From assembly GCA_964187785.1 (NCBI GenBank), contig OZ076409.1:18168001-18232000 (forward strand): DNA of 64,000 nt. The letters run 5' to 3'. Below are positions 37,116 through 57,309 of the stretch, one piece after another. The stretch's first letter is position 1; each line of letters begins with the position of its first letter. The DNA is from Amphiscolops sp. MND2022 (taxonomy: Eukaryota). The notes below the pieces were generated by a model, which worked only from the letters and a program-made list of their open reading frames with translations, was not told the DNA's origin and made no database searches. The translations under genes were made by a program, and so were the position numbers.

Positions 37116-38360
37116 CTGTTCATGTTCCGAGTAATCCACCAGCTCGCTCACAATGCGAGGTCCTTCTGCATCGTGGTTGTCCAGGTCGTCCGCTTTCTTC
37201 CCGTCACCGCATCTTTCTTCCGAGCTTTGTTTCCCATGGCTCTGGTTTGTGTTCACGTTTTCCGACTGTCCTTCAGTTTTGCTATTGCCGTCAGGGCTCT
37301 GCGAATTTTGAACCAAGTTAAAGAAACCACAATATGAACAGTAGTAGAAGTACGAGTAGAAATAAAACAGCCCGAGACTGATCGGAGATGAAGAAGTCTC
37401 GGATAAAAAGACTATTAGGTTATTTGAAATAAATAATCCAATAAGAGAAGCAAATTTGAATGCATACTATTTCATTTAAATAAGACGTTCAAACCGGAAT
37501 ACGACATACATACATATAGCAAATAAAGTTGCAAGTCGTTCAAAGGAGTATTTTCGAGACTAATTTGAGCAAGAAAAATAAATTCATAAAATCCGCAACA
37601 TTGTGACGTTTACAAAAAAATTTTAGCACTGATCAGTGCAAGTTATGTAGCAATTAAAGTTAATTACGGCAGCACTCAAAAATGACAAGCAGAAAGAGGA
37701 GAGGTCAGAAAGAAAAAAAGCCAATTACGCGTCAAACGCTTGGTCAGTGTGTTGTAACGTTGAGAATAGAGGCTACTCTGACAGCATCGCGGCCATCAAG
37801 AAGCACTAAGTCAGACTAAATGCCAAAGAAGAGCTACCCAAGGCGACTTCAGCTTGAAACTCAAAAAAGTTTTTCACCTGAGACGAAAAAACAACACTCA
37901 TTAGAACCGTTTAATAGTCTCCATTGTTTTACAGTAGTATCATCTGATCAGATCTTTTTCACAAAAAAACAAGCTATATACACCACATGGGTACAAAAAA
38001 TTACAACACATTTACATTCTAACACGTCAAAGAGTGGAAAATTTTGTTACGAAAAAAATTTTTAAACTTAATAAAAATACATAAGGACCGCGCGTACTGA
38101 AACCGGAGTTTGGTGTTGTAAGAGAAAATACTTTTTTGCCCTTATTACATGGCGGGCGTGTCAGTGAAAAGAGTTTGGGTGTCAGTACGCTGCAAGCTGC
38201 AGAGCCTCCTTACAGTGTCAATAACGATCCTATAAAGTAAATTTGGAAAACATCGGTAAGTGGAGGGTAATTTACAAATTAGGACAATGTATCTCAAACT
38301 TTATTGATCGTCAAAAATTATTACTTGGTTTTGCGAGGAGCACCCGAGGGATTGTCAGAG

Positions 38361-41300: not shown

Positions 41301-41416
41301 TTCGCAGCGGAGAGACCGCTGCATTTCGTGTGCACGTATCCACATATCGCACACCATACGCCTCGACTACGTAAATGGGCCTGGCAAATGCTGCAGTGTG
41401 TTTGATTGCCTGACAT
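38361..41416 (-). CDS. CRE ORF2: PHD-like finger, RT, CCHC finger and REL endonuclease (one frameshift near 38860)
   Basis: CSIC..CAIC..H..C..W..CVRC. RPIGVGEVLRR, IDAKNAFNS, GTTQGDPL, WYADD. CPCG..HSLQC..RHNEIRD..RLDI..FFDVKI..KKLKY. Confidence 0.92.
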
Positions 41417-41441
41417 TGTGGAGGGAGAGCTGTCGTGTCAA

Positions 41442-41981
41442 TTATTTGATTTGATTACATGTAAAGTGATTAAAATAAAATTTCAAAATCTGAGTGAAAA
41501 CTAAATTTCCAAATCGAGAAAAATGAATGCCGTCTCGGGCAAAAATCTTGTGATCAAAATCACGATTTAAATGAGGTGATATTATAGGCAGGTTGAGGGA
41601 GCGTAGCAGATTGTAGAGGGCAAAATTCAGCTGGTTGATTTTTCTATTCACTGTCTGGTTGTTAGAAGTTGCAATGGTTTTGGGGATAATGAGGTTACGG
41701 GGCTGGAACTTCAGGTACACAAGTTGAATCAGGAACTTCCAATTGTCTGTAAATGTAGTGGCTGCATCACGGTGATCATTAAAACCAGCGACAATGATAA
41801 GGGTATTGATTTTGCGCTGCGGGTATTGTTGGATCAGATTACAGAGCTCGAGCAGGGAGGCACCACGGTAAGAGTGAACTGCTGCACCGATGTCTTTTGA
41901 CCTAATGTATTTCGTTCTGGATGTGCCAATCACAAGATTTGTTGTTCGTTGGCTCAGCTGTCTGGGTTCGAAGCGTGACAT
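41442..41981 (-). CDS. ORF1: SGNH/GDSL esterase-like protein
   Basis: Block I VIGTS, block II SYRGA, block III VAGFND, block V RDGIHF. Confidence 0.8.
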   Translation of the reverse strand: MSRFEPRQLSQRTTNLVIGTSRTKYIRSKDIGAAVHSYRGASLLELCNLIQQYPQRKINTLIIVAGFNDHRDAATTFTDNWKFLIQLVYLKFQPRNLIIPKTIATSNNQTVNRKINQLNFALYNLLRSLNLPIISPHLNRDFDHKIFARDGIHFSRFGNLVFTQILKFYFNHFTCNQIK

Positions 41982-42357
41982 CCTGGAACAAAAAGGACGG
42001 CGCAGTATCGATGGATCATTTGAGTCTCAAAAACTTTCAAAATCAAGGACTCAAGAAAAGAACACAGCTAAAAAACAGCACTAAAAGCTCAAAAAAAGAG
42101 CAGTAAAAAGCATTAAAAGCTCCAAAACGGAGCACTAAGAGCTCAAAAGGAGCACAGAAAAACAAAAAGGAACGAAACAAACTGGCAGGAGTGAAGAGTT
42201 TCTTCTGGTTGCAGGCTGCTGCTCCTTCCTGTGCCTCGCCGCACCACTGAATAATGTAAAAGCTCAAGAGCTGTAAATCATACAATGCCGGCCGCTGAAA
42301 TCCCTAACTAAAAATAGGGCTACCCAATCCAGAGTTGTCCGGGCTTACATAACACAC

Positions 42358-42388
42358 CTATTTAATAAGTTTATCACAACAATTAGGC
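42358..42388 (-). other. Spliced-leader-like exon, 31 nt, at the CRE 5' end
   Basis: GCCTAATTGTTGTGATAAACTTATTAAATAG followed by GTGTGT. The same sequence occurs at 56608-56635. It resembles, from memory, a reported acoel SL. Confidence 0.7.
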
Positions 42389-42842
42389 TAAAAGCATTTT
42401 ATGCCTACGAAAAAAATGATGAAAAAGTTCCTAAAAAGTCCCCACCAGATCACCAGAAGAATCTCCACATCAAGAAAAATGAGATCAACCACATTACCTC
42501 AAAACTGACTCTCGAAAACTTCCATGCTAGCTCAATTTAAATTTAAAGACAGAAAAAAGCACAATGATTTTCGACTCAAATAATAATTTTTGAAGTTCGC
42601 TAAAAACTTATCTAGCACGGTTCAGGTTCGAAATTGCGACGGAACAATGGCAACAGTTCCATTAATTCATTGTTTGCTTGTAGACATTGCTCTGCTTTTA
42701 TTCTTAGTCTGAAAAAAACAGCTGCACCTTATAATCAATTGACAGAAGTCAAACTTTGTCCTCTGAAAAAATGTTACAGGACACTGAAAGACGTCATTTC
42801 AGCAAATGATTGGTCTTTTCCACAATCAATGATAGGAGGGTG

Positions 42843-43140
42843 TTTTTAGCCGGCGCTTTTGAAGAAAAGTGCCCCACTCTTACAGTGACTTTTTTCTTCA
42901 GATTCACACTGATCGGTCCACCAGAGAAACTCCTGAAACCACTAAGGCCAAGTCCGGCCAATGCAAACGTAAGGTAACCTAAAAAACCGGACGAGACTAA
43001 ACGGCCCCCTTTCGATTTTTTTTCGGCACTGTGCGACTTTCCGAATTTTTTTCATATCTCGAAAGGGCCCCATTCGATTTTTTGATATTTTGCAACTGAA
43101 TGTATGTTAATAAATCCCAAAGGGTCCCCCTTTTACATTT
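42843..43140 (-). repeat. Helentron/DINE-like repeat, partial
   Basis: TTTTAGCCGGCGCT plus family modules. Confidence 0.5.
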
Positions 43141-43647
43141 GAAGAAGTTAATTTCCCCATTACCGCGGGGTGGACGCCGAATAAGCAGTTCTGCTTTTCT
43201 AAGTCGGCGCCCTTTCGGATAATATCTTCCCATAGCAAGCTATGGTACCATATTTGTAGCCAGGTGGTCAAGCAATGGTGGGCTTGAAGCTGTGGTTTCG
43301 AAGTGACTTGAGTAGTATGTAAAATTGTTAGGTGATTAGAGGGTCAAGTGACTCCTCCACTCTTTCAACGGGTCGGTGACTCCCGAAAATTTTACAACCC
43401 CTCATAAAAATTTTACGACCCTGAGATAAATTTTATGCCTTTCGCAGGGTGATAAAATTTCACTGCAAACAAAATAAAACACTTCAAAATCGTTTTGTTT
43501 ACATAGTGACTGAGCAGAGAAAGTAGTGACCTATTTTATGCATCATGTTTACAATTACCTCAAACAGAATGAATGCCGACCTATTTAACTTACCAAAATC
43601 ACACTATTTGACCGTACATCAAGCTGTGGTTCCCAGGCTTCAGACAA

Positions 43648-43947
43648 ATGAATTTCTGGATGAAAGTGCTTTGCTTTGTTTTCGGCAGTGTATTGCTTCT
43701 GACTCTGTGCTTATTCGTCATAATTTCCTATCATTCGATTCCACTTGCGAAAAGAAATAATCCAACAGCGAGAACAACAGAAAAAGTCATGTTGGATGCC
43801 TCTCCTTCAATTTGTCCTCCCCAATATGACGGCTTTTGTATGAACGAAGGTCAGTGTTACTTTCCAGTGGAGGTAAACCAAGCTTCATGCTTGTGTAAAA
43901 CAGACTAGGGCGGTAGAAGATGTGAAAAATATTTGTGGTATCATTGA
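43648..43947 (+). pseudogene. Membrane-anchored or secreted EGF-like protein with one premature stop
   Basis: Hydrophobic N-terminus, then CPPQYDGFCMNEGQCYFPVEVNQASCLCKTD*GGRRCEK. Six-cysteine EGF pattern with TAG (43906-43908) at the conserved aromatic position. Confidence 0.8.
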
Positions 43948-44388
43948 CTGATCATTATAATACGTCCTTGAATAGCAGTTGGTACGCCAGATGTCTCTTT
44001 TGATAGTTGACCGTTTTTGGAACTCGACAAATGTTCAAAGTACTCTTCTTCAGCTTCCTGCAAGAGACAACTCTGCTTTTCCAAAAGACTCCCTTTGCCT
44101 TTCATATGATACAAGTTTGATTCAACTGATCGCTGCACTTGTTATAGTCAAATTAGTTGTTTCCGCTGTTCTTCATCTCCGAGACTATGAGAGATGACCA
44201 ATATGAGCTTTTGATTGGTTAGCCAAAGCGCTTGCAAATGCTTGAAACCGTTCACTTCAAGCACTTGGTTGTTTCTTGACCAATTACAGTCGAGACCTAA
44301 TTTCATCTTCTATCAAGAGATTTGTCATTTTCTGTCTTTCGGTCTTAGAGTTAAGAACACTTAGCCATACGTCTCCCACTAACCAGAA

Positions 44389-44982
44389 ATGCTAAACTAC
44401 CAATCAGTTGACATTGATTTCGAAGGTTTCCGCATCTCTAATCATCCATTTGTTGTTAAAGAATGGTCCGTACGTGGGCTGGATTTCCACGACACTATAC
44501 TATTGAAACCACCATATACATCAAACTTGATACCGTCGAAGACACAAAAAGTTTATGCTTGGTTAACAAAGAATATACACGGTCTCACGTGGGAATCTGG
44601 CGTTCACAATTACTCTTTTCTATTCTGCTTTTTCGTCAGTCTGAAAATACGTTTCCCGAACATTATTGTTTATGCAAAAGGTTTCGAAAAGTGTGCCTAT
44701 CTCCGCTGTTTCTTCATTCAAGTTATCAATTTAGAAACTCCTAATTGCCCTAGCGCCAACCAATTAAACCTTCTTCCCAAATTCACTTGCTCCAATCACC
44801 TGGGCAGCTACCATCGCGCGCATTGTGCGAGAGAGAAAGTAAATCTTTTCTACGATTGGCTCTCTCGTTGGAATCAAAATTGTGAACATTGCAATACTGC
44901 TAATGTCGAAGGACAATCTACACCTTACCCTTTCCACGAACTTAACACTTTCAGTAATAACAACAGCTCATCTGGACAGTGA
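44389..44982 (+). CDS. DEDD/DnaQ-like exonuclease-fold Polinton accessory protein
   Basis: VDIDFEGF..VKE..HGLTWESG..YAKG.EK..INLE..C..H..HCA. Confidence 0.6.
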   Translation: MLNYQSVDIDFEGFRISNHPFVVKEWSVRGLDFHDTILLKPPYTSNLIPSKTQKVYAWLTKNIHGLTWESGVHNYSFLFCFFVSLKIRFPNIIVYAKGFEKCAYLRCFFIQVINLETPNCPSANQLNLLPKFTCSNHLGSYHRAHCAREKVNLFYDWLSRWNQNCEHCNTANVEGQSTPYPFHELNTFSNNNSSSGQ

Positions 44983-45226
44983 TTGTAGTCAAGAACATTG
45001 GTGTATTGAAGTGATCAAAGAAGAGTACAAGAGAGTGGGTGAACATAGACTACTACGGAAGGCGGTCATCAGCTTATCTCCAACTGAATACCAACAGTTC
45101 TTGTCTAGTACAAGCTCTGTCGATTCTTTTCTCAAGTTCGTCAGTACAAACCATGTCAAATCAACGTCTCCAGCAATTGATGAAAGAGCGCAACATACCT
45201 CCTCTAAAAATTCCCGAACCACCTGA
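44903..45226 (+). CDS. Small Polinton ORF, weakly PC4-like
   Basis: Overlaps both neighbours. RKAVISLSPTEYQQF resembles the PC4 KKGISLT.EQW motif. Confidence 0.3.
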   Translation: MSKDNLHLTLSTNLTLSVITTAHLDSDCSQEHWCIEVIKEEYKRVGEHRLLRKAVISLSPTEYQQFLSSTSSVDSFLKFVSTNHVKSTSPAIDERAQHTSSKNSRTT

Positions 45227-45407
45227 TCCCGTCATTCTGTCCGGTCTCGAAGATCCTTTGTTACCGGTACAGATAGCGAAAGAACTGTCATCACGGGATG
45301 ATGTTGTGGAAATAGCCTACTTTGCCCCTTTCAAAAATTGGAGAGGTCAATTCAGAGTAACTTTCAAGAAAAACGGAAACTTTAATTTTTGTCGGTTTCA
45401 TGTATGA
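45153..45407 (+). CDS. Small hypothetical Polinton ORF
   Basis: ATG-initiated (MSNQRLQQLM...) and part of the compact cluster. Confidence 0.35.
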   Translation: MSNQRLQQLMKERNIPPLKIPEPPDPVILSGLEDPLLPVQIAKELSSRDDVVEIAYFAPFKNWRGQFRVTFKKNGNFNFCRFHV

Positions 45408-45737
45408 TTTAATTTGTATTCTTTATAAGCATAATTCAAATCTTTGTCTCATTCTCTTTTTTGATGTCAACGCAAGCAGTCGATACCACAGACGCAATCG
45501 GCGTCGAAAGTTTAGTTTTTCAAGGTGATCAGAGTGAACGCTCATCTTGGAAATTCTGCAATTCCACAACCTTACCGCGTTCTGAGGTAGTTTTTTCTTC
45601 CAAGCACTAATTTTATTGATTCTCATCATCGCAGTTCTAGTGAAACTACTTTTTTACGAAGTACCTTGCGAAGAGATGCCATTCTGGGTGTCACTTTTAT
45701 CTGCTGCAGTCGGATATATTCTTTCCAATCCACGACT

Positions 45738-46457
45738 ATGAAAAAAATAATTTTTACCAGTGACCGTCTGTTCATGTCAGTCGTTGGGCCAGGAGGTTCC
45801 GGGAAAACCAGGTTGATTTTTTCAATGCTGGCTTCCGAAACTTTTCGTCCGAAGTTCGAGAAAACTTACTATTTCTACAAGGAATATCAGCCTTTGTTCA
45901 AAGAAATGTCAGAAAAACTAGATATCGAGTTTGTCTCTTGTCTCAATTTCCAAATGATCAAACAACTAGAGAATTGTCTCCTTGTCTTTGACGATTCTTG
46001 TGAAGAAATTTATCAAAAAAAAGAGTTTGTCAAGTTGGCTGTTGCTGGCAGACACCGAAACGTACATTGCATCTTCGTCAAACATAATTTGTTCCACCAG
46101 AGTAGGTGGTCGCGTACCATTGATCTCAATACAACTCATATCATTCTCTTCAAATCATCCAGAGATTTGCAACAGATTGATCACTTCGGTAGAAAGTTGA
46201 TGAAGGTTGACTTTCTTCGCGAAACCTACAGGAAAGCAACATCTGAACCCTATGGACATTTATTGGTTGATTTAGATCCTAAAACTAGCGAGTATTTACG
46301 TTTTGCCTCGAACATCACAGCCCATGGCTTTCAGTTACCGTCAGAACTTGCGAGACAAACGAACCTATCAAATGAACGCGAAAAACGTGCTTACACTAAA
46401 GCATTGGCAGAGCAGAAAAAGCAAGAAAGAATACAGAAAATTTCTATGTGTATGTGA
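45738..46457 (+). CDS. FtsK-HerA/A32-like DNA packaging ATPase
   Basis: Walker A GPGGSGKT, Walker B LLVFDD, arginine finger GRHRN, LNTTHIILFKS, PYGHLLVD. Confidence 0.9.
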   Translation: MKKIIFTSDRLFMSVVGPGGSGKTRLIFSMLASETFRPKFEKTYYFYKEYQPLFKEMSEKLDIEFVSCLNFQMIKQLENCLLVFDDSCEEIYQKKEFVKLAVAGRHRNVHCIFVKHNLFHQSRWSRTIDLNTTHIILFKSSRDLQQIDHFGRKLMKVDFLRETYRKATSEPYGHLLVDLDPKTSEYLRFASNITAHGFQLPSELARQTNLSNEREKRAYTKALAEQKKQERIQKISMCM

Positions 46458-46677
46458 TCCTGAAAGCCTCAGGTTTCTCTGCGAATGCGCTTTCAACATT
46501 ATCAACGGCAACGTGCCTTTCGATGTTGAAAAATTATTCCCTTGCGAGTCACAATTGAAAGTTTTGTGCAATAGTTCAACTTCGCCCAGGAAACGTCGAG
46601 AAACACTGTGCTCAGTCAAAGGAATAAAGTTACTTCAAGAGATCAGTCGGTCTATCAATTCTTATCTTATGCAATGA
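46372..46677 (+). CDS. Small conserved Polinton protein next to the ATPase
   Basis: LCECAFNIINGNVP motif, which I recognise from ATPase-adjacent Polinton ORFs. Confidence 0.6.
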   Translation: MNAKNVLTLKHWQSRKSKKEYRKFLCVCDPESLRFLCECAFNIINGNVPFDVEKLFPCESQLKVLCNSSTSPRKRRETLCSVKGIKLLQEISRSINSYLMQ

Positions 46678-46922
46678 CTTCCCATGAGTTTATTTTGGTT
46701 CCGAAAGAAAATTACATTGAACACCAACCAAAAAGCTTGGAAATCCTAGATGATGCAACAATCAACGAAAAAGCAAAGATTTTGACTCTTTTGCAGAGAC
46801 AACAACCACCCAAAGACCCGAAGGAAAACAAGACTCAGTCCACTTTTTTGTCAGAACCCGAGCGAGACATAATTGAAAAACGGGTTTTAAAATCACTGTC
46901 AATGATGAAACCTTTCAACTGA
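46674..46922 (+). CDS. Truncated Polinton ORF
   Basis: ATGA overlap with the previous stop. MTSHEFILVPKE... Confidence 0.45.
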   Translation: MTSHEFILVPKENYIEHQPKSLEILDDATINEKAKILTLLQRQQPPKDPKENKTQSTFLSEPERDIIEKRVLKSLSMMKPFN

Positions 46923-47318
46923 TGAACACAAATCGTTAGTTTTGTTTACCAGCATTGAAAGGGGTTGTACCTCCTTTTTATGATTTGAAATTTAAATACT
47001 TAGCCTGCTTTGATGAAACTGTTTATCTCAGTTGAAGCGTCCATTTTTCTCGGCTGAAGAACTACTATTTTTGTTGATTTTCTTTGTTAGGTATTTCTTC
47101 AGTTTCAGCAAAAGTTCAGTTCACCTGACTGCCTTTGCTTACATTAGAAACTCGCGGACGATGCTGATATCGCCTTTAGTACGTAAAATAGGTCACCACT
47201 TTCTCTGCTCAGACACCATGTAAACAAAAGGATTTTGAAGTGCTTTCTTTTGTTTGCTCAAGTAGCAGTGAAATTTTATCACCCTGCGAAAGGCATAAAA
47301 TTTATCTCAGGGTGGTAA

Positions 47319-49220
47319 TAGCACGGAACTGCGTAACAAAGCGAAGCTAATTTGCGTCCTGATGTATCCTATGGCGTCCGAGTAGCTGTCTTGTCCTTTT
47401 TCGCTGATCTTCAGAGCAAGTCGGGACATAACTTTCGAGGCTGAAGGACCTGCGCCTCCTGAACACGCGAAGACAAGAGGATTGAATGAGCTGTTTTCCA
47501 CATCAAGGATTCTCTGTTCGTACTTCAGTTTTTTCAAAGTTTCATGATATTTATACGCTTCCTTTACTTCTTTCGGACAGGACTTGGCCAGCGGGTTAAA
47601 AATTTTGACGTCAAAAAACGTTCTCGAGAATCGTGAATCCCAGAGTCCATTTGCTCTGATATCGAGACGAGCTTCATCTTCAGTGCAAGTTGATTTATAT
47701 TCGAAGGATTCCCCTTCTAACCTCTGAAGTTTCGGCTCCACCTCAACGTCGAAGCAAACGTCTTTCATTATCTTTGCGAACGTATCGCGTATTTCGTCAT
47801 GTCTCATGTGAGTGTAGCCTCCTTTTCCGCAGTGTAGGGAATGGGCAACAGTGAAGGGTTCACCACATGGGCATTTGGCAGGTAAATTCTTCGGCTCCCA
47901 ACCGTAGCGCAGCGCGAGACCGTCCCGAAATTCAGACTTCGTAAGAGTGAAACCATAGCGTTTCAGTGGGAGGGCGGCTAGCCAGCTGGATGCTCCTTTT
48001 TCCGAAACAAGTGTAACTGCGTGTCGTTGTTCGTCATTCAAGTTGCATTTGACTTCTTCAAGCTTAGTTCTTTGAATTTCTTGCTTCTGTTTCTTTATCA
48101 TGTTTACTGTTGAGTGTTGCTTCGCTTCAGCGGTGGTTAGATCCTCTTCATCTAGATGAGAAGTAACATCCTTTGACCACTGCAGATCGTTTCTTCTGTC
48201 TTCGGGTGAAAGGATATTCAGCCCACCTTTGCTGAGCGGTAGGGAGAAAAGAGACCGTTCTGCTACAGATAACTGACCACGGCCGGTGATGTTAGGGATC
48301 AGTTTCGTCGTTAAGAGAGATTCGGTGTTTTGCAGTGTGCTATCCATGTCAGGTGTTGTTCTTGACAGGAAGGTGAGTTTGTGTTGAACACCTTTTGTAA
48401 ATGCATGATAGACATTCTGTGGTGACTTTTTCGCATGTGACGCAAGTTTGTCCACAATGTTCGTGTACTCAGTGAGTTTGGAGGACTGGAAAGCGTGACA
48501 GGCCTCGGGCGATCCAATAACGGAACCCAGTACACGGTGTCCTCCCACTAGTTCAACATCCTCGTCTTTAAAGAGGTCTTTTGCTTTGTCAAGGGAGGAA
48601 TCTTTCGTGATGAGATGACATTTAGTGATGTTGTATCCAAATGCGGGACCGTGGAGCTTCAGTTTTTCGAAGAGATTTCGAAGCGATTCGATGCTACCGG
48701 CTACATTGCCATCGTCAGCATACCATTTTTGTAGCACTCCTTCTTCGTTCACGAGGTCCATTAACGGTAGAAGCGCAATGCCATACATGGACATAGCCAA
48801 AGGGTCGCCTTGAGTAGTTCCTTCTTGCGACAAGAGAGTTTTCCCATTCACGTAAAGGTTTGAAGGTGTACCATATGAGTTTCGGAGCGCTGTTATGATG
48901 GATGGACAGGTTTTCTGAATGTTTTTCAGGGCCAGATCCCTATTTAGACTATTGAACGCGTTTTTGGCGTCAATCAGGAGAAGCCCTTCTGTCTCTGGCA
49001 GCTCGAAAGTCTCACGTAGACTGTGAATGGCGTGTTCGATGCCACATTTTTGACCAAGGCAGAGTTGCCTATTCTGGCCCAAGATCTTGAGATCGTTCCC
49101 GATGCATCGAAGAATGTTCCTCCCAATTATGCGTCTGATGACTTCGCCCACTCCGATTGGTCTGACACCGGGTTTTTGTCAAGCGGTATGAGACGGCATG
49201 CGTTGTAGGGAGTTAGTTGT
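47319..49220 (-). mobile_element. Second, divergent CRE element, truncated at both ends (RT plus REL)
   Basis: 614-aa ORF with IDAKNAFNS, GTTQGDPL, WYADD, RHDEIRD, FFDVKI. It breaks after LLRSSVL at the Polinton TIR. Confidence 0.92.
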
Positions 49221-50399
49221 TTATATTGTGAACAATAGCTTTTTTTCCAGGACCTCATACAAGAAAAAAATTCCCAAAAACAGTGTTCCAACTTTGCCTG
49301 AAAATTACAAAACCAATTCTGATATTACCTCCGATATCAACAATTTTAACTCGTATTGGTAATCAAGCAATCAAACTCATAACTTAGGAAACTTGTTTTG
49401 TCATTAACTTTACCGAAACTCATTGTTGAGCACCTCAACAAAAAACCTGACATTTTCTCTGAAATGGGAAATGCGCACCAATTAGGGTATATGCACCATC
49501 AAGAAAAGGAAATAGCAGTTCAGAAACAGAGAGTCAACAAGGTAGTCAAAATACAGTCTATGTTTCCGAAAAATTTGAGTTGTTTCTTACAGGATGTTTC
49601 GGGATAGCAGCCAAGGGAGCTACTACCGCGGAACTCACGAGTTCAAACTAGAGAACTTGAAGGAACACAAAGATAAAGTTCCAGCTATTAAGATTGGGGT
49701 CTTGCCTCTTAAGATAACAAACTCCAACTTGCACATTGATATCAATCCTCTATGCAAAGTTGGCGGAACAGATTACGCGGATTCCTAAATTTTCCAAAAT
49801 TCGCCTTCTCAGGAAGCTGTTCATTTTTGTCACTCCTGTATTCGTTTTTCGCTGATATTGAAACGCACACAATAAAATCTAACCGAATTTAATTTTTCTT
49901 CGTCAACGAGCACAGCTGTTTGATTTTTCAACATCTTTGATTACATGCATTCCAGCCGGTCACCATCCATCAATAGCTCACTTCGACGTCTGAAAAAAAA
50001 TGTTATGCAAAGAACCAAACTATTTTGAAAAGTGAGTGTAAGCTAGTAAAACTTGATGTTAGCACTAATATAACTAAAATTTGGCCCTTGTAGCACATTA
50101 ATATTATTTCTTCAAATATTGCTTGTTGCAAAACCATTGTTTCAGTGTGGCAGTTGCCTGAAAGACTCGTACAGCTACAGACTCGATCTCCGTTCCCGCT
50201 AGGTCTTTGCTACTGTTCGACCTCGCTTGGCAAGATGGGAGCATAAGCGGCCCCAAGGGGCCGCGGGGCACTAGAGGAACTGGGGGCATATCCGAGGCAC
50301 GTTTTAATGTAGCAAAGGTATCTATGAAGAGGTATCTTTGTTTTTAGCTTTTTAGAGAACGTTTCGGCGGTGTTGTCTTGTTCCAGACTAGAATCGCCA

Positions 50400-50745
50400 C
50401 GAAATTCAGCAGAATTTTCGCGGTGGGCGGAAATAGGTCGAAGGAACGGGATCGAAAATCAGAGTTAGTCCTCAGGTCGACATACCAAATTTTTGAATGG
50501 GATCGAAACAACTCGGATCGAAATTTTTATAACGTAGTCAGAAAAGTTCACATACTCCTAGTTCCCTGAATGCAGGAGCGAAGCGACGTGCCATATGGCC
50601 ATGCCTCAATGTTGCTACTTGGCGAAGGGAGCGAAGCGACCGAGCCATACAACAAATACGATAAAATTCGACCGCATTACATTCGATCCCAGCAATTCGA
50701 TCAAAAGGTTCGACCTCTGTCCTTTCGACCAAAAAAATTCGACCT
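50400..50745. repeat. MITE-like repeat (GTCGAA/TTCGAC subterminal repeats around a shared core)
   Basis: Oppositely oriented short repeats flank the core at 50559-50657. Ends not resolved. Confidence 0.5.
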
Positions 50746-50826
50746 ATTTACAGCCACCCAATTTTCGAAGCAGCGGATTTCAATGACTCTCCAGATCGGC
50801 AATGCGGCCTGTGTTCTAGGATATAT

Positions 50827-51026
50827 NNNNNNNNNNNNNNNNNNNNNNNNNNNNNNNNNNNNNNNNNNNNNNNNNNNNNNNNNNNNNNNNNNNNNNNNNN
50901 NNNNNNNNNNNNNNNNNNNNNNNNNNNNNNNNNNNNNNNNNNNNNNNNNNNNNNNNNNNNNNNNNNNNNNNNNNNNNNNNNNNNNNNNNNNNNNNNNNNN
51001 NNNNNNNNNNNNNNNNNNNNNNNNNN
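50827..51026. other. Assembly gap (200 N)
   Basis: Run of N. Confidence 1.
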
Positions 51027-51487
51027 CTTGACAGCAACAATAAACTTAAGACTGAAAATGCGACAATGAAGCATCTTACGTTACAATACAAAACAATACA
51101 ATACAATACGCACATGAACACATAACATGAGCAAATTGGCGACATTATAACCGACTCAAAACCGTCGAGTTTACAACGCGTGGTGTTGAGAAATTGTCAA
51201 CATAAACAGGCTTTCCGACGGTTTGCAAGTATTTAATATCGCCTTTCGAACTAAAAGTAGATGTGACAGCCAATTGACCTCTGACTGTATGCCCTGATTG
51301 TATGGCAAAAAAAACAGAAAAATAGGAAATTTTTCTTCAGAAAAGTTCGAAATTTTTTTGATGAAGGTTATTGTTAACGCTGATAGTGCCGTAAGCCGTG
51401 AGCAGTCCTCTATGCTCGCGAAAAAGTTTCGTTTCTAGTGAAAATTGAGGGGGGGCTTCGATGAAAACAAATTGGGAAAACAACATC

Positions 51488-51960
51488 AGAACGTGTAAAG
51501 TCGGCGCTTTATCCAAGACTCAAAAAGCGCAAAACATTTTTTTAAAGACAAAACTTGAAATTTTGGAAAATTTCTCTTCTTTCGGAAAATGGCGCATAGT
51601 GCCGAAAAATGTTTTTGTGCCGAAAAGATCATTTTGGTTTTATTAACATACATTCTGTTGCCGAATTTCAAAAATTGCAAAGAGGGCACTCTTTGGGGAC
51701 ATTGAAAATTTTTGAAAAAATGTCGCACAGTTCCGAAAAAAATCCAAAAGGACCGTTTAGGCACGTCCGACTTTGTAGGTTTCCTTGAGAAAGTAAAAAA
51801 TCAAAGGGTACCCTCAGGAATAAGTTTGCCTTGGTCATAGGCGGTTTCAGGATTGTTTCTAAAAAGTGGAACGATCAGTGTGAGGTTTGTAGTCTGAAGA
51901 AAAAAAGTCCATGCTATAGTTAGGCATTTTTCCTTAAAAGGATGAAGCGCCGACTAAAAA
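51488..51960 (+). mobile_element. Helentron/DINE-like repeat
   Basis: AACGTGTAAAGTCGGCGCT ... AGCGCCGACTAAAAA. Confidence 0.55.
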
Positions 51961-52427
51961 CGCATAGAAAAAACACCGGTCTTTGAAAAAAAATATCAAA
52001 AATAGCGTGCTAGGCCTGCGAAAACCTAAATTTAAGACAAAAATATTCCTTTTGGAGAATCTCACAATGACGAAAACTGTGAAAAAAGGCCCTTTGAGAT
52101 TTTTCAATATTTATTCTCTTAGACAATTTCATAAAAATTAAATGGGAACCCTTTGGAGATTTTGAAACTTTTTCGAAAAAATAAACAAAAAATAGATTTT
52201 TTGAGAGTCTCAAAGTGCCGAAAAAATTGAAAGACGGGACCCTTTGGGGTTTTCTAACATTCGATCTGATTCAAAACATCAAAAAAACATGAAGAGAAGA
52301 CCCTTTGGAGACATTTAAAAAATTTCGCAGAAGTCTCACACACACGAAAAAAAAGCCAGAGGAAGTCTCATAGTGCCGAAACAATGAGAACCTTCTGCTT
52401 CGAGATACTTGGGAAAAAATTAGAGCA

Positions 52428-52497
52428 TACGCACGGGTTCGAACACGAAACCTCTGGGTTGAAAAGCAAGCATCTTAACACTAGACCACGAACGCCT
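52428..52497 (-). pseudogene. tRNA-derived (Glu-like) pseudogene or SINE head
   Basis: A box TGGTCTAGTGTTAAG, TTC-like anticodon loop, B box GTTCGAACCC. Stems are imperfect. Confidence 0.55.
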
Positions 52498-53390
52498 GAA
52501 CTATGTGACATGCGGGCTGAGAAGAGAAGGTTGTTCCTCGGAAAAAACACGCGCACTTTCCCATGACACTAGCTTTTCGCAAGTAAAATTAGTCAGCATA
52601 ACGAGTGTCAAAATCTCTTTTTGGCGAAAGATCGGCAGGCACTGGTTGATTTTAAAGTGAACTTCGTAGATCTGTTGATGGCCAAAAACCCAGCGGAAAC
52701 AAGATTTCTGGAAACGCTCCGTTTCCTTCAATCTGTTGATGTCGCGAAACCAAGCCGGAATATCATAAATGAAGATGGAGAGCACCGCTGCCCGAAAGAG
52801 ATTTAATTTTGCACGCGAAGGGGTATTAAGGGGATTCTTGACTTCAGAGAATAAAACGCCTTTCTCGCTCTTCTCGCTTTGTTGATTTCAATTTCAATAT
52901 GACTGACCAATTAAAAATCATTTGAACTATGCAAACCCAAAATTTCGTATTATGTCACATTCTCCAACGGTTCTGTAGATCTTAAAACAAAATCTGTTGA
53001 CCTTTACTTGCAAAGCATTTGGTTTTATCCAGATTAGCAGTCATTCCAATTCCAAAATCGCGATGAATGGTTGAGATCATCCGTAAATACGCATGGAAGA
53101 GTCACGAAAATTTGAATGCAAGTCATTTACGAATAACAGAAACAGCAACGGTCCGACAAGCGAACCCTGAGGCACACCACTGGCAACATGAATAGCATCG
53201 GATCATACTTTTACGTGTTAGATGCGATCATCAAGATAGCTTCGTAGTAGATCAACAAGATCACTATCTAAACCGAATCTCAGGAGCTTAGGGAAAAGTT
53301 TTGGATGAGGAACGTTGTCAAATTCTTTTTCATTTTGCATGTAAATGAACATACCAGAAGTTTTATGGTGATGTATTATTTCAACAAAAG

Positions 53391-54665
53391 CTATCAACTG
53401 GTGTACTAAGCTTTTTTCCGACTGAAACCCAATCTGTTAAGGATGAAAATCTGTATGTAATGTTTTGTACAAGAAAGAAATATTTCAATCGAAGATCAGG
53501 GATACTTTTGATAACAAATTGATAGGACGGTAGTTACTGATTATATTCACGAGGTTGTATACACCTCTATTGTGTAGAGGACGAACATATGCCACTTTCC
53601 AAACGTCAGGATAGACACGTGTGAGCAAGATAGAAGCAAGAAAATCGTAGAAGAAAATCGGACACACTTTCATTAAAACTGGCGGTAAGCATTCGGTTTT
53701 TTTAAGTGAAGATTCTTTTGTTTCTAAAATCCTTCGTGTTGTTATATTGTTTGAAGAATTCAGTATATCAGCTAACTTCACAGACTTGTAACTGGGCACA
53801 GGAAAAGGACAGAATACATGAGTATTGTAATCTTTTGAAAGATATATAATGCAAGCATTTGCAGTTTGCTTACGCCCAGAGTAGGAACATTAGTTTTGGT
53901 TCATGACAGTGAGGCAGGAACAGGATGTTGAGTTCACGCTGTTCAGAAAATTGAAACAATCAGCGAGAGAATTGGTTCGCGCTCCATCGATGAACAAAAG
54001 ACGATCAAGTTCAGTGGAGGTTTCGAAATCTATCAACTGGTGTACTAAGCTTTTTTCCGACTGAAACCCAATCTGCTGAGGTTGAAAATCTGTATGTAAT
54101 GTTTTGTACAAGAAAGAAAAAATTTCAATCGAAGATCAGGGATACTTTTGATAACAAACTGATGGGACGGTAGTTACTGATTATATTCGCGAGGTTGTAT
54201 ACACCTCTATTGTGTAGAGGACGAACATATGCCACTTTCCAAACATCAGGATAGACACGTTTGAGCAACATAGAAGCAAATAAATCGTGGAAGAAAATCG
54301 GACACACTTTCATTAAAACTGGCGGTAAGCATTGGGCATTTTTAAGTGGAAAGTCTTTTATCTCTAAAATCATCTTTCTTATTGTTACATTGTTTGAAGA
54401 ATTCAGTATATCAGCTAACTTCACAGAATTGTAACTGGGCACAGGAAAAGGATGGAACACATGAGTATTGCAATCTTTTGGAAGATGTATATTGAATACC
54501 ATCAATTTGCTTACCCCCAGAGTAGGAATAATAATTTTGTTTCATGACAGTGAGGCAGGATGTTGAATTCAAGCTGTTCAGAAAATTAAACCAATCAGTG
54601 ACAGAATTGGTTCGCGCTCCATCGATTAACAAAAGACGATCAAGTCCAGTGGAGGTTTCGAAATC
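53391..54665. repeat. Tandem duplication, unit about 640 bp, inside the LINE RT
   Basis: ORFs 53485 and 54125 are offset by 640 bp and are diverged copies. Confidence 0.9.
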
Positions 54666-56607
54666 AAGCTGGAGATTTTCGAAGATTTTCAGTGTATTTT
54701 ATCAGGATTTTTGCAGTGTTCTTTTATTTAAGCAGTGGATAGTACGCGACGAGTCTCAGAAAGAATTATCAGAGCGTCTTTTACGCTTTTTCGAGAAAAA
54801 CGATGTCCCTTTATGTCCAAAAAAAATTGTAGAATTTGTTTACATTGACAGGAGGAAGATAAGAAAGGCAAGCAAAAAGAATCCAGTTTTTCTGGATTTT
54901 TAGTAATTCATGAGCTTTAGTTTTTGAAAAATCACGAAAAATTGATCTAGGGCAAAGATATTCGTGAACTTTGAAAATTACGGAATACTGATTACTCAGA
55001 ATATTTTGTTTCCTCATTTAAAAAGAGATAGGATAACTACGGTCATTACAGAGTCTTTTCATCAAGAAATAGAAGTAGTAAGCCCCAGTTGGAAAAGAGC
55101 TGTAGATAATATTTTTCTCAGCTGCAATTACTAAACATTAGATGCCAATAAGCATTCGGAGGGTTAAAATCGCCTACATAAGGAGTGAGATTGAACACTC
55201 AAGGAATACTTTTGTTCCAATGAACAAGTAGCAGTTTCCAGTAGGGTTGTCATACACTCTTCGGACAACTCGTACGGACCAGGATATAGCAGATAAACAA
55301 AGATAATTGGAGCTGTCATTACGATACATATGCCGCAACGAACTAGCAAGATCTTGCTAGTTAGAATAAAAGCCAATAAAAACGCGTTCTTATTTCAAAT
55401 ACGCGTTACGAGTTTTGCTCGTTACACTGTGTGATTTGGCGTTACGTGTAGTGATCAAAATACAGTAAATGACTACTTCACACTCTCTACAATTACGTAC
55501 TTTGACTGGTTTCCACTTCACACATGAATGAAAGCATCGTCTGGAGTTATTTTTACTCACGGTATGTACCAAGATGTGATTGGTTTCCACTTTTCTGTAA
55601 TTACTTACGCTCAAGGATCACAATCCGCAATTTCTGATTACACTGTGCATCACAATCCATGATGAACACGGTGCACTGTTTGACTAGAATACATTTCGCT
55701 CTCGTTTTACGGAAAATACAGCTTACACTTGATGATAAATTCCACTTTTGCGGCATATGTATCGTAATGGTCGTTTTTTCACTGAGGCGAAGAGCTATAG
55801 CAACGGCAAAGTCGAAATCATCCAAGTCTATTTTATCAACTAAAAAAATTACAAGTAGTGCAAAAATGCATAGTTAAACCACCACGATGACCCTTTAATC
55901 TACCTTTTCTTGCAACAGTTTAAAGCATCCAAAGAGCATATATTGTGTATAATCCTTCCACCAAGTTTCAGTAAGGAATAGAAAGTTGATTTTTTCTCTG
56001 TCTATCAGCCCATTTAAGTTCCTGTTTTCGGAAATAAGTTGTTCCTTTCAAACCACGAGCATCGACCATTAGCAGTCGCTTATCATGTTCACAGTCAAAT
56101 AAAACTTCAAAAGGACGGGGACGCGAATGAGATTCCGAAAGAGTGCTTTTTCTACCAAGCCTTTCGAGCTATCGACATAACTGGATGGGACTTTCAATTT
56201 ATTCATCAAATCAGTTACAATTTTAACATTTTAGAACAAAACCGATTGAGAAGCAGTGGAGCCGTAGTCACGTTCGTCCATAAACGTTTTGAGCACTGAT
56301 CGCAAATTGACTTGATCGTCATTAGATACACCTGAAGTGGAATTTGAGTTGTGTTTTTGTCCAAGAACATCTTTGACTTCATCGATTCTAGAGTTGATTG
56401 TTTCAAAAAATAAACTGCAAGAATTAGACTTAAAGAAAACACATGAGGCAGTCCTTTCCTAATTTATTGGTCAAAGATTTGAATTCGTCAAGCAAGGCAC
56501 GCACCATCTCGTCCACTTGTGGATAGTATTGTTCAAAGTTCTTCTGACCAGCAGAAGTAGAATTAGCTTTTTGCTTTCCAGAATCAACCGACATTGTCAA
56601 TATGCAC

Positions 56608-56635
56608 CTATTTAAGTTTATCACAACAATTAGGC
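56608..56635 (-). other. Spliced-leader-like exon at the LINE 5' end (3-nt deletion variant)
   Basis: GCCTAATTGTTGTGATAAACTTAAATAG, 13 nt upstream of ATG 56594. Confidence 0.7.
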
Positions 56636-57309
56636 TTCAGTTTAATCGTTATATAGCGCACAATTAATCCCTGTACCAGTTCACGTCGCCTTCAGTTTTT
56701 CTCGGACTACGGAAAATTTAACTACTAAGAGTAGACGAAGTTTAGTATTCGCATTTGAATGCAGACGAAACTCTCGGCGAACGAATAATTAACACTTGTT
56801 GGCTTCATCCCAATAACTCCGCGTACGAAAGCATAATTACCATTGGCTCGTTCCATCGCACGAAAAACAAATTGTTGTCGGCTGCTTGAGAATTTTAAAT
56901 TTCACGCTCATACTTACTGCCGAACAAAATATCTGAATTTTTCAGAAGGTACTAAATCGCTGATAAAAGTTGACTGAAAAAAGTTGCATGGTTCAGATTT
57001 CACCGTGTAACGTCACCACGTGTAACGTCACCCTATTGCACACCGCATTATCACCAATCGAAGTTAGATAAATTCGAAGTAACCGAAAGTGACGTTGATT
57101 GCGTATGTGACGTTAACAGCATGCTTGCTCTTGGAGCAAGTCACCAAAAATGAAGGAAACTGAGCCTCAAATGTCCGTGCAGAGACCGTGGAAACACGAA
57201 AGACCGCGAAAAGACGGTCTATAGAAGGACTCAATTAGCAAGTGCTGATAACGCTGAAAGTGATTCAAGATCGCCATTCGCGTATCTTCTAGCATGTTGC
57301 TACTTGTTG

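Follow-up and report, generated by a model that had tools for sequence, protein, structure and literature searches.

Spliced leader sequence heads unrelated LINE families in an acoel genome, probably as a copy of trans-spliced element RNA

CRE1/CRE2, SLACS and CZAR of trypanosomatids and NeSL-1 of nematodes integrate at one defined position within spliced leader (SL) RNA genes, with SL sequence on both sides, and in R2 the 5′ end of the LINE is set by RNA processing of a co-transcript through an HDV-like ribozyme. SL-tagged retrocopies, or 'recycled' processed cDNAs, were reportedly described in dinoflagellates by Slamovits and Keeling in 2008. Such dinoflagellate retrocopies are also dealt with in PMC6050394, PMC5585692 and PMC12014239. 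For parasitic flatworms, passages of two papers (Boroni et al. 2018, PMC5832876; Calvelo et al. 2025, PMC12582326) report genomic SL merged with LINE or LTR elements and suggest integrated copies of trans-spliced retrotransposon transcripts; there the loci are mentioned in passing, as six loci for which possible assembly chimeras are considered, along with 597 partial-leader loci that were set aside. Other 5′ arrangements are described in papers on L1Tc, with Pr77 and its HDV-like ribozyme (PMC3185411, PMC3383444), on twister variants in Schistosoma LINEs (PMC8501958) and on U6/LINE-1 chimeric retrocopies (PMC11838501).

We analysed a window of 64,000 nucleotides (the whole stretch, contig OZ076409.1) from the acoel Amphiscolops sp. 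MND2022, in which the 22-nt core GCCTAATTGTTGTGATAAACTT occurs at exactly two sites, 42388–42367 and 56635–56614, both on the minus strand. The original prediction had placed the motif at these positions, which mismatch search and shuffles confirmed, since no third site was found in the window even with up to three mismatches and the shuffle control gave matches in 0 of 100 shuffles. The first copy extends through ATTAAATAG to its last base at 42358, and the second through AAATAG to 56608, with one TTA/ATT unit missing relative to the first, most simply by a slippage deletion within the TTATTA repeat; this shortened form has one match genome-wide and is thus unique. As had been noted before, an A directly upstream and a GTG directly downstream are common to both copies, the rest of the flanks being unrelated. 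The A is part of the leader, because SL RNA genes read …A/GCC and nearly all retro-copies keep it. The GTG after copy 1 is element-1 family sequence (GTGTGTTATG in every copy), and that after copy 2 is private to the window copy of element 2, whose relatives show TTT. Copy 1 is a complete 32-nt leader (AGCC…AAATAG; 42358–42389, minus), equal to the SL RNA gene exon and the published leader, and copy 2 a 29-nt leader lacking one TTA unit (56608–56636, minus). They form the first bases of elements 1 and 2 respectively, each in sense orientation at the start of a non-LTR element, of two different kinds, in keeping with what had been proposed.

Judged by its published counterpart and by its genes, the 32-nt motif is the host's authentic spliced leader. 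The resemblance to an acoel SL noted earlier holds, for the SL of Symsagittifera roscoffensis as given in PMC9911081 is identical to the window motif, and SL/5S arrays contain SL RNA genes whose donor is GTAAGT. Genome-wide, the 22-mer has 2,421 matches with at most one mismatch, where the reversed control has 0, and 1,214 exact leader + GTAAGT sites represent the true SL RNA genes. Many of these sit in 904-bp SL/5S rRNA arrays of alternating SL RNA and 5S rRNA genes, located away from the window but on its own chromosome-scale contig (C1); the first 100 leader + GTAAGT sites listed are all in one such array, with a spacing of mostly 904 bp. The array unit that was read contains a 5S rRNA gene (117 bits) and a Sm-like site, AAUUUUUGA, spotted by eye.

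Element 1 (38060–42389, minus) is a full-length non-LTR retrotransposon of ~4.3 kb, comprising leader, 5′ UTR, ORF1, RT ORF, 3′ UTR and a short A/T-rich tail, its 3′ end being placed at the point where the matches to 40 other genomic copies run out (query positions 364–449 of window 38500–37800). It is bounded by identical 12-bp target-site duplications (TSDs; ATTTTTTTCGTA) at 42406–42417 and, after the 3′ tail, at 38048–38059 (both minus), with 16 extra bases (ggcataaaatgctttt; 42390–42405, minus) between the 5′ TSD and the leader; the junction of these 16 bases has no other genomic match at up to three mismatches, and hence no parent. The first ~200 nt of the 5′ UTR (42150–42357, minus) are strongly conserved (column conservation about 0.9) among subfamilies otherwise 71–83% identical, and gave a fold z-score of −0.64. 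ORF1 (41442–42026, minus; 194 codons stop to stop) has no Pfam match at E up to 1. ORF2 (38795–41437, minus; 880 codons) has an N-terminal Cys/His-rich region, a reverse transcriptase (RVT_1, E = 5.8e-12, residues 381–564) and a C-terminal CxCx7Hx3C motif; the Pfam search found no APE family in it, and its closest PDB match is the R2 protein 9nl2 (E = 4.4e-5). In the window copy the frame is broken near 38800–38855, and ORF2 continues in another frame for 164 codons (38361–38855, minus) with an RLDI…FDVK motif, which, recognised by eye, may mark a restriction-like endonuclease; PDB and Pfam searches of this segment gave no support, and its predicted fold has a pLDDT of 38. The label 'CRE' formerly given to the element is therefore not borne out, its RT being nearest to R2 in PDB and its endonuclease seen by eye alone.

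Of 30 element-1 loci, 28 extend as far as the 5′ end, and all 28 retain the leader or its recognisable remains at a common junction, AAATAG/GTGTGTTATG (13 with a perfect 31-mer), as the suggested 5′-end alignment reveals; the two leaderless loci are 5′-truncated. The junction holds across subfamilies only 71–83% identical over the next 408 nt, and the upstream flanks are all different. In 12 of 12 copies examined, TSDs of 9–18 bp enclose everything from leader to tail; therefore, the leader belonged to the inserted cDNA. TSDs were resolved for element 1 alone, and a clear TSD was not seen in the single APE-family copy examined. Like CRE, SLACS, CZAR and NeSL-1, element 1 combines a non-LTR element of the R2-like (restriction-like endonuclease) type with SL sequence on its 5′ side. 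Unlike them, it is dispersed, has unrelated flanks and TSDs, bears the leader in full without any SL intron, and does not lie in SL genes.

When the sequence downstream of the genomic copies was classified, as had been proposed, these separated into the 1,214 SL RNA genes and dispersed copies, which include those heading LINE families. At least 591 dispersed copies (leader end plus a non-G base; control, 3) are joined directly to other sequence, the leader stopping precisely at the last base of the exon before unrelated sequence begins. By hand tally, 86 of the first 100 of the 591 fall in recurring tags and 64 start with TTTC, family tallies being based on 19-nt tags with one or two representative loci per tag. 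Pfam Exo_endo_phos or Exo_endo_phos_2 domains lie downstream of the leader in L004, L005, L006 and L013, and a PHD domain is found in ORF1 of L005, L006 and L011. On these domain and tag data, other dispersed leaders head APE LINEs and many LINE families are leader-headed; in whole families the leader is, to judge from the copies aligned, the 5′ terminus of every full-length copy. Related copies moreover differ by 27 or 6 bases ending in TTTTCAG or TTTCAG: L003 and L008 have the leader followed by 27 nt ending in TCTTTTCAG and then ATTAACTG, which follows the leader directly in L091, and L093 has the leader, TTTCAG and AGATGATG, the last following the leader directly in L092. Two further long/short pairs were seen from 19-nt tags alone. 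Since the pairs split at TTTTCAG or TTTCAG, they show that LINE RNA appears to have been trans-spliced repeatedly.

We infer trans-splicing of LINE transcripts from the DNA and from the published figure of 30% trans-spliced genes in the species concerned. The explanation that very probably accounts for the data as a whole is that LINE RNAs are trans-spliced to the host leader and reverse-transcribed with the leader included. Primary LINE transcripts, both of an R2-like family (element 1) and of many APE-type families (element 2 and others), would be trans-spliced just as host mRNAs are; the element reverse transcriptase would copy the mature RNA up to its very first base, and new insertions would then start with a complete DNA copy of the leader inside the TSD. 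Leader-headed families would mean that the elements copy themselves from leader-spliced RNA. The original prediction is thus partly supported: SL identity, the 5′ positions, the leader inside the TSDs and, at the DNA level, trans-splicing with full-length copying (12 of 12 TSDs, many families) stand well, and the 'CRE' assignment does not. As in dinoflagellates, a DNA-encoded 5′ leader marks a reverse-transcribed trans-spliced RNA; there, by contrast, it is mostly host genes that are tagged, frequently with tandem truncated relict leaders, whereas in the acoel, an animal, the LINEs themselves are tagged, in many families, with a complete leader, and searches for relict or tandem leaders were negative. 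The flatworm loci are likewise SL–LINE fusions, read in those passages as integrated trans-spliced transcripts. They differ in host (platyhelminth, not acoel), and the acoel leader is complete, lies within TSDs, occurs in all full-length copies of a family and comes with documented use of alternative acceptors.

How the leader is kept across generations is less settled: we infer inheritance with a probability somewhat short of even and re-splicing in each cycle with a lesser one, a mixture taking the remainder. In the reading that comes nearest to an even chance, trans-splicing supplied the leader on several independent occasions, after which it was passed on as element DNA. Transcription would begin at its first base, directed by sequence in or after it, with occasional fresh splicing further downstream, and the leader might itself hold initiator or promoter information, as is reported for the Ascaris SL RNA gene. 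Consistent with such inheritance, the long forms (leader + TTTCAG…, leader + 27 nt…) make up the majority, the short, re-spliced ones being rare and seemingly not amplifying, the ~200 nt past the leader of element 1 are conserved, and one LINE subfamily is enriched for an A18G change in the leader, which fits simple inheritance at least as well. However, dozens of unrelated families would have to begin transcription at precisely the base that lies 32 nt ahead of their original 5′ ends, the largest APE family shows no inherited variant (its 14 variant-leader copies have 13 different changes), and the A18G subfamily also includes 13 copies with the canonical leader.

Regeneration of the acceptor, the model first put forward, is a possible though rather doubtful alternative. 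Promoterless LINEs would be carried in read-through transcripts, with the DNA leader as a built-in 3′ splice site; flank and old leader would be removed together as the outron, and the terminal AG would receive a new capped leader in each cycle, re-creating the same RNA. Ribozyme-bearing LINEs face the same problem of a defined 5′ end from a transcript possibly starting upstream of the element; in element 1, unlike these, an Rfam search of the 5′ region found no known ribozyme at E up to 10, and the 5′ end is the host leader. Regeneration agrees with 5′ ends that are exact to the first A of the leader in most copies of many unrelated families, since trans-splicing yields exact, complete ends automatically. 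It also agrees with a leader still canonical where element-1 subfamily 5′ UTRs differ by 17–29%, and, within the largest APE family, in 64 of the 78 copies that have a leader, and with a leader-to-ATG distance of 8–13 nt in many APE families, which leaves little promoter room. A branch-point-like CTAAT, identified by eye and presumed to act as such, lies within the leader, 24 nt before the terminal TAG with no intervening AG, and the long/short pairs suggest that LINE RNAs are trans-splicing substrates. Nonetheless, strong downstream acceptors (TTTCAG at +6, TCTTTTCAG at +27, TTTTTTTAG at +34) are used in a minority of copies, unused outnumbering used by 26 to about 3, 8 to 2 and 4 to 1 respectively in a hand tally of dispersed copies. 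Searches for relics of the leader joined to CCTAATTG, for tandem leaders within 12 nt and for copies with transduced parental flank found none, and the 16 extra bases in the window are parentless; these results favour inheritance. The A18G variant accounts for 4 of the 10 variant matches listed in one LINE subfamily and for only one SL RNA gene among the 10, against 1,214 canonical genes, and its persistence counts against refreshing because a refresh from the SL pool would erase it. The conserved 200 nt after the leader of element 1 could, besides, be an internal promoter.

For element 1 only, it is quite unlikely that an ancestor, having integrated into an SL gene where exon and intron meet, gained the exon through SL-promoter transcription rather than trans-splicing, and later lost site specificity. 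The element is R2-like with no APE match, SL-gene-specific elements belong to the broad R2-like class, and its junction AG/GTGTGT resembles AG/GTAAGT of the SL gene, but no SL intron sequence was found in the window, the TSDs are non-SL sequence in 12 of 12 copies with all flanks different, known SL-gene elements carry just part of the leader, and insertion in an SL gene leaves unexplained the same leader heading many APE families at alternative acceptors. A template switch from the LINE RNA 5′ end to free SL RNA would fit a partial leader upstream of the leader of one old copy (L048), and the U6/LINE-1 chimeras (PMC11838501) likewise join small nuclear RNA sequence upstream of a LINE, but those involve template switching, the whole small RNA and a variable LINE junction, whereas here the spliced exon alone is joined, ending exactly at the splice donor in the dispersed copies read (L001–L013) and in all leader-bearing element-1 copies, none with any SL intron, at a junction fixed within each family, so that this, or an independent short repeat, is barely credible. 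A chance match was rejected (0 of 100 shuffles, 0 for the reversed control, 3 against 591 for dispersed copies).

The body of element 2 (52501–56607, minus) is a decayed APE-type LINE with many stops, whose first ORF starts from an ATG at 56594–56592; its 3′ end and TSD were not found. An RT fragment at 53218–53436 matches RVT_1 at E = 7.4e-6, below Pfam's cut-off, and a fragment at 55895–56047 shares 68% identity with the APE region of a relative, L062, a region that has homologues in the APE domains which Pfam supports in L005 and L006. The element has an internal tandem duplication of about 640 bp (53387–54689, minus) with copies 86–94% identical, and its leader adjoins the end of another repeat.

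The window contains exactly two occurrences of the 22-mer GCCTAATTGTTGTGATAAACTT, each on the minus strand (42388–42367 and 56635–56614), as the original prediction had described, and each copy is preceded by an A and followed, after running on as ATTAAATAG to 42358 (copy 1) or as AAATAG to 56608 (copy 2), by GTG, with unrelated flanks beyond. The window has no third site at three or fewer mismatches, and 100 shuffles yielded no match. The suggested likeness to an acoel spliced leader (SL) was also borne out, since the 22-mer lies in the published Symsagittifera roscoffensis leader GCCTAATTGTTGTGATAAACTTATTAAATAGA, which, according to the available text of the acoel genome paper, was rebuilt from unmapped transcript 5′ ends and is carried on mRNAs, SL trans-splicing affecting 30.2% of genes (PMC9911081). 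In the Amphiscolops genome (1.07 Gb in 1,929 contigs; window at 18.17–18.23 Mb of contig C1), we found 2,421 matches to the 22-mer at no more than one mismatch versus none for a reversed control, and 1,214 sites at which the leader end is followed exactly by GTAAGT, these sites being SL RNA genes whose donor is canonical. The 100 of them listed first all belong to one array at C1:16.24–16.42 Mb with a spacing of mostly 904 bp, and the array unit that was read whole comprises one 5S rRNA gene (Rfam, 117 bits) and one SL RNA gene, A/GCC...AAATAG/GTAAGTATTCC..., with AATTTTTGA as an Sm-like site by eye. The leader is 32 nt long, its first base, A, being absent from the reconstruction in PMC9911081. 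Many units of the SL/5S array (C1:16.23–16.42 Mb; loci L014–L030) measure 2.9 kb and not 904 bp, with an insert of ~2 kb whose end coincides exactly with the first leader base (...ATTCTTTAAAA/AGCC; especially L016, 1–1500 and 2448–3022). The insert has a long ORF (371+ and 191+ codons) with no Pfam match, and several diverged versions of the insert 3′ end occur; an element targeting the SL gene start is one possibility.

Leader copies outside SL genes were sought as the last 16 leader bases followed by a non-G base, a pattern with 591 matches in the genome versus three for a control, 591 being a lower bound given that the pattern also demanded a non-G base 18 positions on. Where SL genes read ...AAATAG/GTAAGT, these dispersed copies carry the complete exon, ending exactly at the splice-donor position, and then other sequence. 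When the 19-nt tags after AAATAG were tallied by hand for 100 listed of the 591 matches, they fell largely into recurrent types: TTTCCGG... (31), TTTCAGACGC... (10), other TTTCAG... tags (16), CTGCGG/CCTCGG... (eight and two short forms), TTTC[AC]TAT... (seven), ATTGTATGG... (five), AAATATTT... (four and one short form) and CTTCAGCTG (two), with 14 others. Locus-level readings are from a sample of genomic copies. Most of the 13 dispersed C1 loci that we read have LINE-like reading frames 8–70 nt behind the leader; Pfam detects an apurinic-type (APE) endonuclease (Exo_endo_phos or Exo_endo_phos_2) in L004, L005, L006 and L013 and also places PHD fingers in the opening ORF of L005, L006 and L011, while L003/L008, L009 and L012 are LINE-like by eye only and L001 and L002 are without class. 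A target-site duplication (TSD) was sought in one APE-family copy with a (TAG)n tail, and no clear one was found.

The element headed by copy 1 in the window (element 1; 42389–38060, minus strand) allowed the leader to be followed through a whole family. Using as query the 408 nt behind its leader, we read 30 genomic loci, of which 28 reach the 5′ end, and all 28 have the leader or recognisable remains of it at the same junction, AAATAG/GTGTGTTATGTAAGCCCGGA. Thirteen of these leaders are perfect 31-mers, nine have one to three changes and five are decayed, truncated or rearranged; the last, in L033, is missing ~9 nt at its 5′ end and was later parted from the body by a 378-bp insertion. L042, too, has a leader that is truncated at its 5′ end. 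The two loci without a leader begin at query positions 100 and 210. The junction holds even in subfamilies with only 71–83% identity to the window copy. Upstream of the leader, each copy has a different sequence, and TSDs of 9–18 bp surround the leader-to-tail unit in all 12 copies examined. The window copy has the TSD ATTTTTTTCGTA (42417–42406 and 38059–38048, minus strand), and the 16 extra bases between it and the leader occur nowhere else in the genome. TSDs around the whole unit, together with differing flanks, indicate that element 1 is dispersed and not SL-gene-specific, and that the leader is part of the inserted cDNA.

Two young copies, L036 and L039, contain an apparent GTC variant, GTCTAATTG. 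It was rejected as an SL RNA allele, none of its 11 genomic matches being an SL gene; the T is target-derived via microhomology (AGT continues the TSD), and the two loci have no further variant in common. In L033, also young (C9:9839577 region), the 378-bp insert lies directly behind the leader with a 10-bp duplication, GTGTGTTATG, at its flanks, and with its repeated TTCGACGAATTGAATAG-like ends is probably a small DNA transposon. An old copy, L048 (C3:58264772 region), has a partial leader (positions 6–21) directly upstream of the leader, which looks like a template jump at the RNA 5′ end.

Element 1 consists of the leader, a 5′ UTR of ~330 nt, an ORF1 without family assignment (41442–42026), an 880-codon reverse transcriptase (RT) ORF (38795–41437; RVT_1, E=5.8e-12), a frame break and a 164-codon continuation, all on the minus strand. 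RVT_1 is its sole Pfam match, with none to an APE endonuclease, and the best PDB match of the RT ORF is the R2 protein 9nl2 (E=4.4e-5). By eye, the C-terminus resembles restriction-like endonucleases (RLE) in having RLDI...FDVK and a CxCx7Hx3C motif; for this part PDB and Pfam gave nothing, the Atlas gave unnamed clusters only and a single-sequence fold was unusable (pLDDT 38). Of the earlier assignment as a CRE element with such an endonuclease, the endonuclease type is thus plausible, given the motifs seen by eye and the lack of an APE match, but CRE is not demonstrated; the best PDB match is R2 and the target is not an SL gene. At the 3′ end, 40 other genomic copies stop matching at window positions 38137–38052, 37 of them within 38093–38052, and the 1,802 first-look candidates for this region imply that 5′-truncated copies abound. 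The first ~200 nt after the leader (42150–42357, minus strand) are ~90% conserved among subfamilies, with the rest of the UTR diverged, and may hold an internal promoter or other cis element. Among known ribozyme classes, no HDV-like, hammerhead or twister match was found in Rfam at E up to 10 in window positions 41800–42500, and the 5′ region folds no better than its shuffles.

Element 2, headed by copy 2, runs from 56636 downwards on the minus strand, with a leader that is minus one TTA and an ATG 13 nt later, at 56594. Its body is full of stops, with a 640-bp internal duplication and an RT fragment (RVT_1, E=7.4e-6). A decayed fragment shares 68% identity with the APE region of its relative L062; that region in turn matches the APE domains that Pfam supports in L005 (E=5e-10) and L006 (E=3e-6), but Pfam itself only at E=0.056. 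Relatives read leader/TTTCATATTGACAATG, with GTG in place of TTT in the window copy. The ATT-less leader is not an inherited variant, being unique to the window element, with a 15-nt insertion instead in L062. We looked for a 3′ end and a TSD of element 2 in the window and found neither. Directly upstream of the element 2 leader lie 364 nt (56637–57000, minus strand) of a repeat that recurs with 78–87% identity at other loci (L002, L041, L105). In L002 it is found ~400 nt downstream of a different (variant) leader, and in L105 it adjoins an element 1 3′ end; these contexts place element 2 head-to-tail behind another retro-copy. At L063 and L064 (C3:42.20 Mb), 5′-truncated element 2 relatives lie directly behind element-1-type 3′ ends (...CCAAACTCCAGTTTCAGTACGCGCGGTCC...), which is another head-to-tail arrangement of unrelated LINEs.

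How could a host exon come to head such different elements? The best-surviving reading is that LINE RNAs are trans-spliced to the leader. In the dispersed copies that were read and in element 1 the SL exon alone is present, and its junction with the LINE is fixed within each family, so that with the leader ending at the donor position and the partner starting at a fixed point, splicing remains as the explanation. Moreover, related copies differ by pieces that end in a textbook 3′ splice site: L003 and L008 have the leader, 27 nt ending in TCTTTTCAG and then ATTAACTG..., where the related L091 passes from leader to ATTAACTG... directly, and L093 has the leader, TTTCAG and AGATGATG..., where L092 has the leader and AGATGATG.... 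Two further pairs are seen in tags only, one being L009, with 34 nt ending in TTTTTTTAG, versus the tag at C1:13278512 and the other CTTTAG/CTTATGCAA... versus CTTATGCAA...; L094–L096, considered as a third acceptor pair, were not alignable. Such related copies with different junctions suggest that trans-splicing acted on LINE transcripts more than once in a family, its products being copied back full length. The original prediction that LINE RNAs here are trans-spliced and copied with their leader is accordingly upheld, as far as genomic sequence can speak, by the element 1 TSDs and the alternative-acceptor pairs: LINE RNA would be joined to the leader, reverse transcription would proceed to the first base, and the leader would enter DNA at insertion. 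A template switch onto free SL RNA should leave the intron portion of that RNA in the copies and make the LINE junction variable, neither of which is seen. Insertion into SL genes is ruled out by the non-SL TSDs, the varied flanks and the lack of SL intron sequence in the window, and a chance match by the shuffle, reversed and pattern controls. In the L009 family (C1:11035891), an inverted copy of the last ~18 leader bases stands directly behind the leader, before the TTTTTTTAG acceptor, and would form a 5′ hairpin with it; the arrangement recurs in four of the 100 listed tags and so is inherited within the family.

How the leader persists between generations is a separate question. LINEs must re-make a full-length, translatable RNA at each new site, and to our knowledge the route to a defined 5′ end is known for few families only, through internal promoters or 5′ ribozymes. 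One reading, to which we give not quite an even chance, is that the leader is inherited as element DNA, with transcription starting at its first base. The other, which we hold only tentatively, is that it is re-added each cycle with the terminal AG of the DNA leader as acceptor, as originally proposed for its AAATAG end. Re-splicing accords with the exact 5′ ends of many unrelated families, the very short UTRs, the canonical leader in diverged element 1 subfamilies and, by eye, a branch-point-like CTAAT that stands 24 nt ahead of the closing TAG, the stretch between them being free of AG. It also accords with the TTTCCGG family, tallied by hand for 100 listed of 137 matches (22 without leader, near the control rate), in which 64 of 78 leader-bearing copies have a perfect leader end and the 14 variant copies represent 13 different changes. 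Against re-splicing, the strong acceptors just downstream of the leader are used in only a minority of the 100 listed tags, a genome-wide pattern search gave no match for two leaders separated by 0–12 nt and none, at one or fewer mismatches, for leader/CCTAATTG, and transduction of a parental flank is not seen, the 16 additional bases ahead of the window leader being without a second copy. The conserved 200 nt behind the element 1 leader could, moreover, be an internal promoter.

A leader variant, A18G, bears on the same question. Its 10 listed matches are one SL RNA gene (C610:84307; G at leader position 18, GATGAAC, then a normal GTAAGTATTCC) and nine retro-copies of several LINE families, and it also occurs in L033. 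Four of the 10 belong to one CCTCGG-type subfamily and have body states in common, which are also found in 13 canonical-leader copies; inheritance of A18G within this subfamily is suggested by these sequences but not proven. It is conceivable, if rather doubtful, that the LINEs are obligate users of trans-splicing, the DNA leader being a portable 3′ splice site (branch-point-like CTAAT, U-rich stretch, terminal TAG) that renews the 5′ end each generation. A read-through transcript entering a LINE copy would then be cut free of host sequence and given a fresh capped leader, and the exact 5′ end would be re-created every time without an own promoter or ribozyme. If true, this would be a third solution of the non-LTR 5′-end problem, beside internal promoters and self-cleaving ribozymes, and would account for unrelated LINE classes converging on the same first 32 bases.

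Leader relics also mark retro-copies in dinoflagellates, where recycled cDNAs carry tandem or truncated relict leaders; our genome search for such leaders gave no match. Unlike CRE, SLACS, CZAR and NeSL-1, which occupy a fixed site inside SL RNA genes, element 1 is dispersed, with TSDs that are all different and non-SL. SL-gene-specific RLE elements have an RT followed by a CCHC motif and an RLE domain and no APE; in element 1, RVT_1 is the only Pfam match and the other motifs are seen by eye. Ribozyme-headed LINEs begin with HDV-like, hammerhead or twister sequences, for which the element 1 5′ region has no Rfam match, and snRNA/LINE chimeras contain a whole small RNA at a variable LINE junction, in contrast to the exon-only copies with a junction fixed per family found here. 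The Schistosoma SR2 element is said to carry an SL, for which we found no confirming paper; PMC3846280 does not mention trans-splicing. For parasitic flatworms, two papers remark briefly that genomic SL sequences fused to LINE or LTR elements may represent trans-spliced transcripts that became integrated (PMC5832876, PMC12582326). The available text of the acoel genome paper, supplement legends and tables included, has nothing on LINEs with leaders (PMC9911081), and our literature searches turned up no account of acoel LINE families headed by an SL. New here are an animal as host, an extent that covers whole families and crosses classes, proof by TSDs (for element 1) and the alternative-acceptor pairs.

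Two unrelated endonuclease classes of LINE (the RLE class of element 1 being putative) and many families thus share the host spliced leader as their start. Such families tie LINE replication to SL trans-splicing family-wide and provide a clean marker of full-length retrotransposition, and the signature, hinted at in flatworms, may be general where a genome has both LINEs and SL trans-splicing. Annotation is affected as well, since no fewer than 591 leader copies lie outside SL genes and are mistakable for SL RNA genes or trans-splice sites. It can now be tested whether the leader is re-added each cycle or has become something the element inherits, perhaps with promoter function. Elsewhere in the window, 200 N at 50827–51026, just past where element 2 fades out, may be an assembly gap or a withheld stretch; an ORF at 45591–46457 (plus strand) has weak P-loop-type matches (Pox_A32, E=9.6e-5, just below cut-off); and a third RT ORF, of 623 codons, lies between elements 1 and 2 (47307–49178, minus strand; RVT_1, E=8.7e-9).
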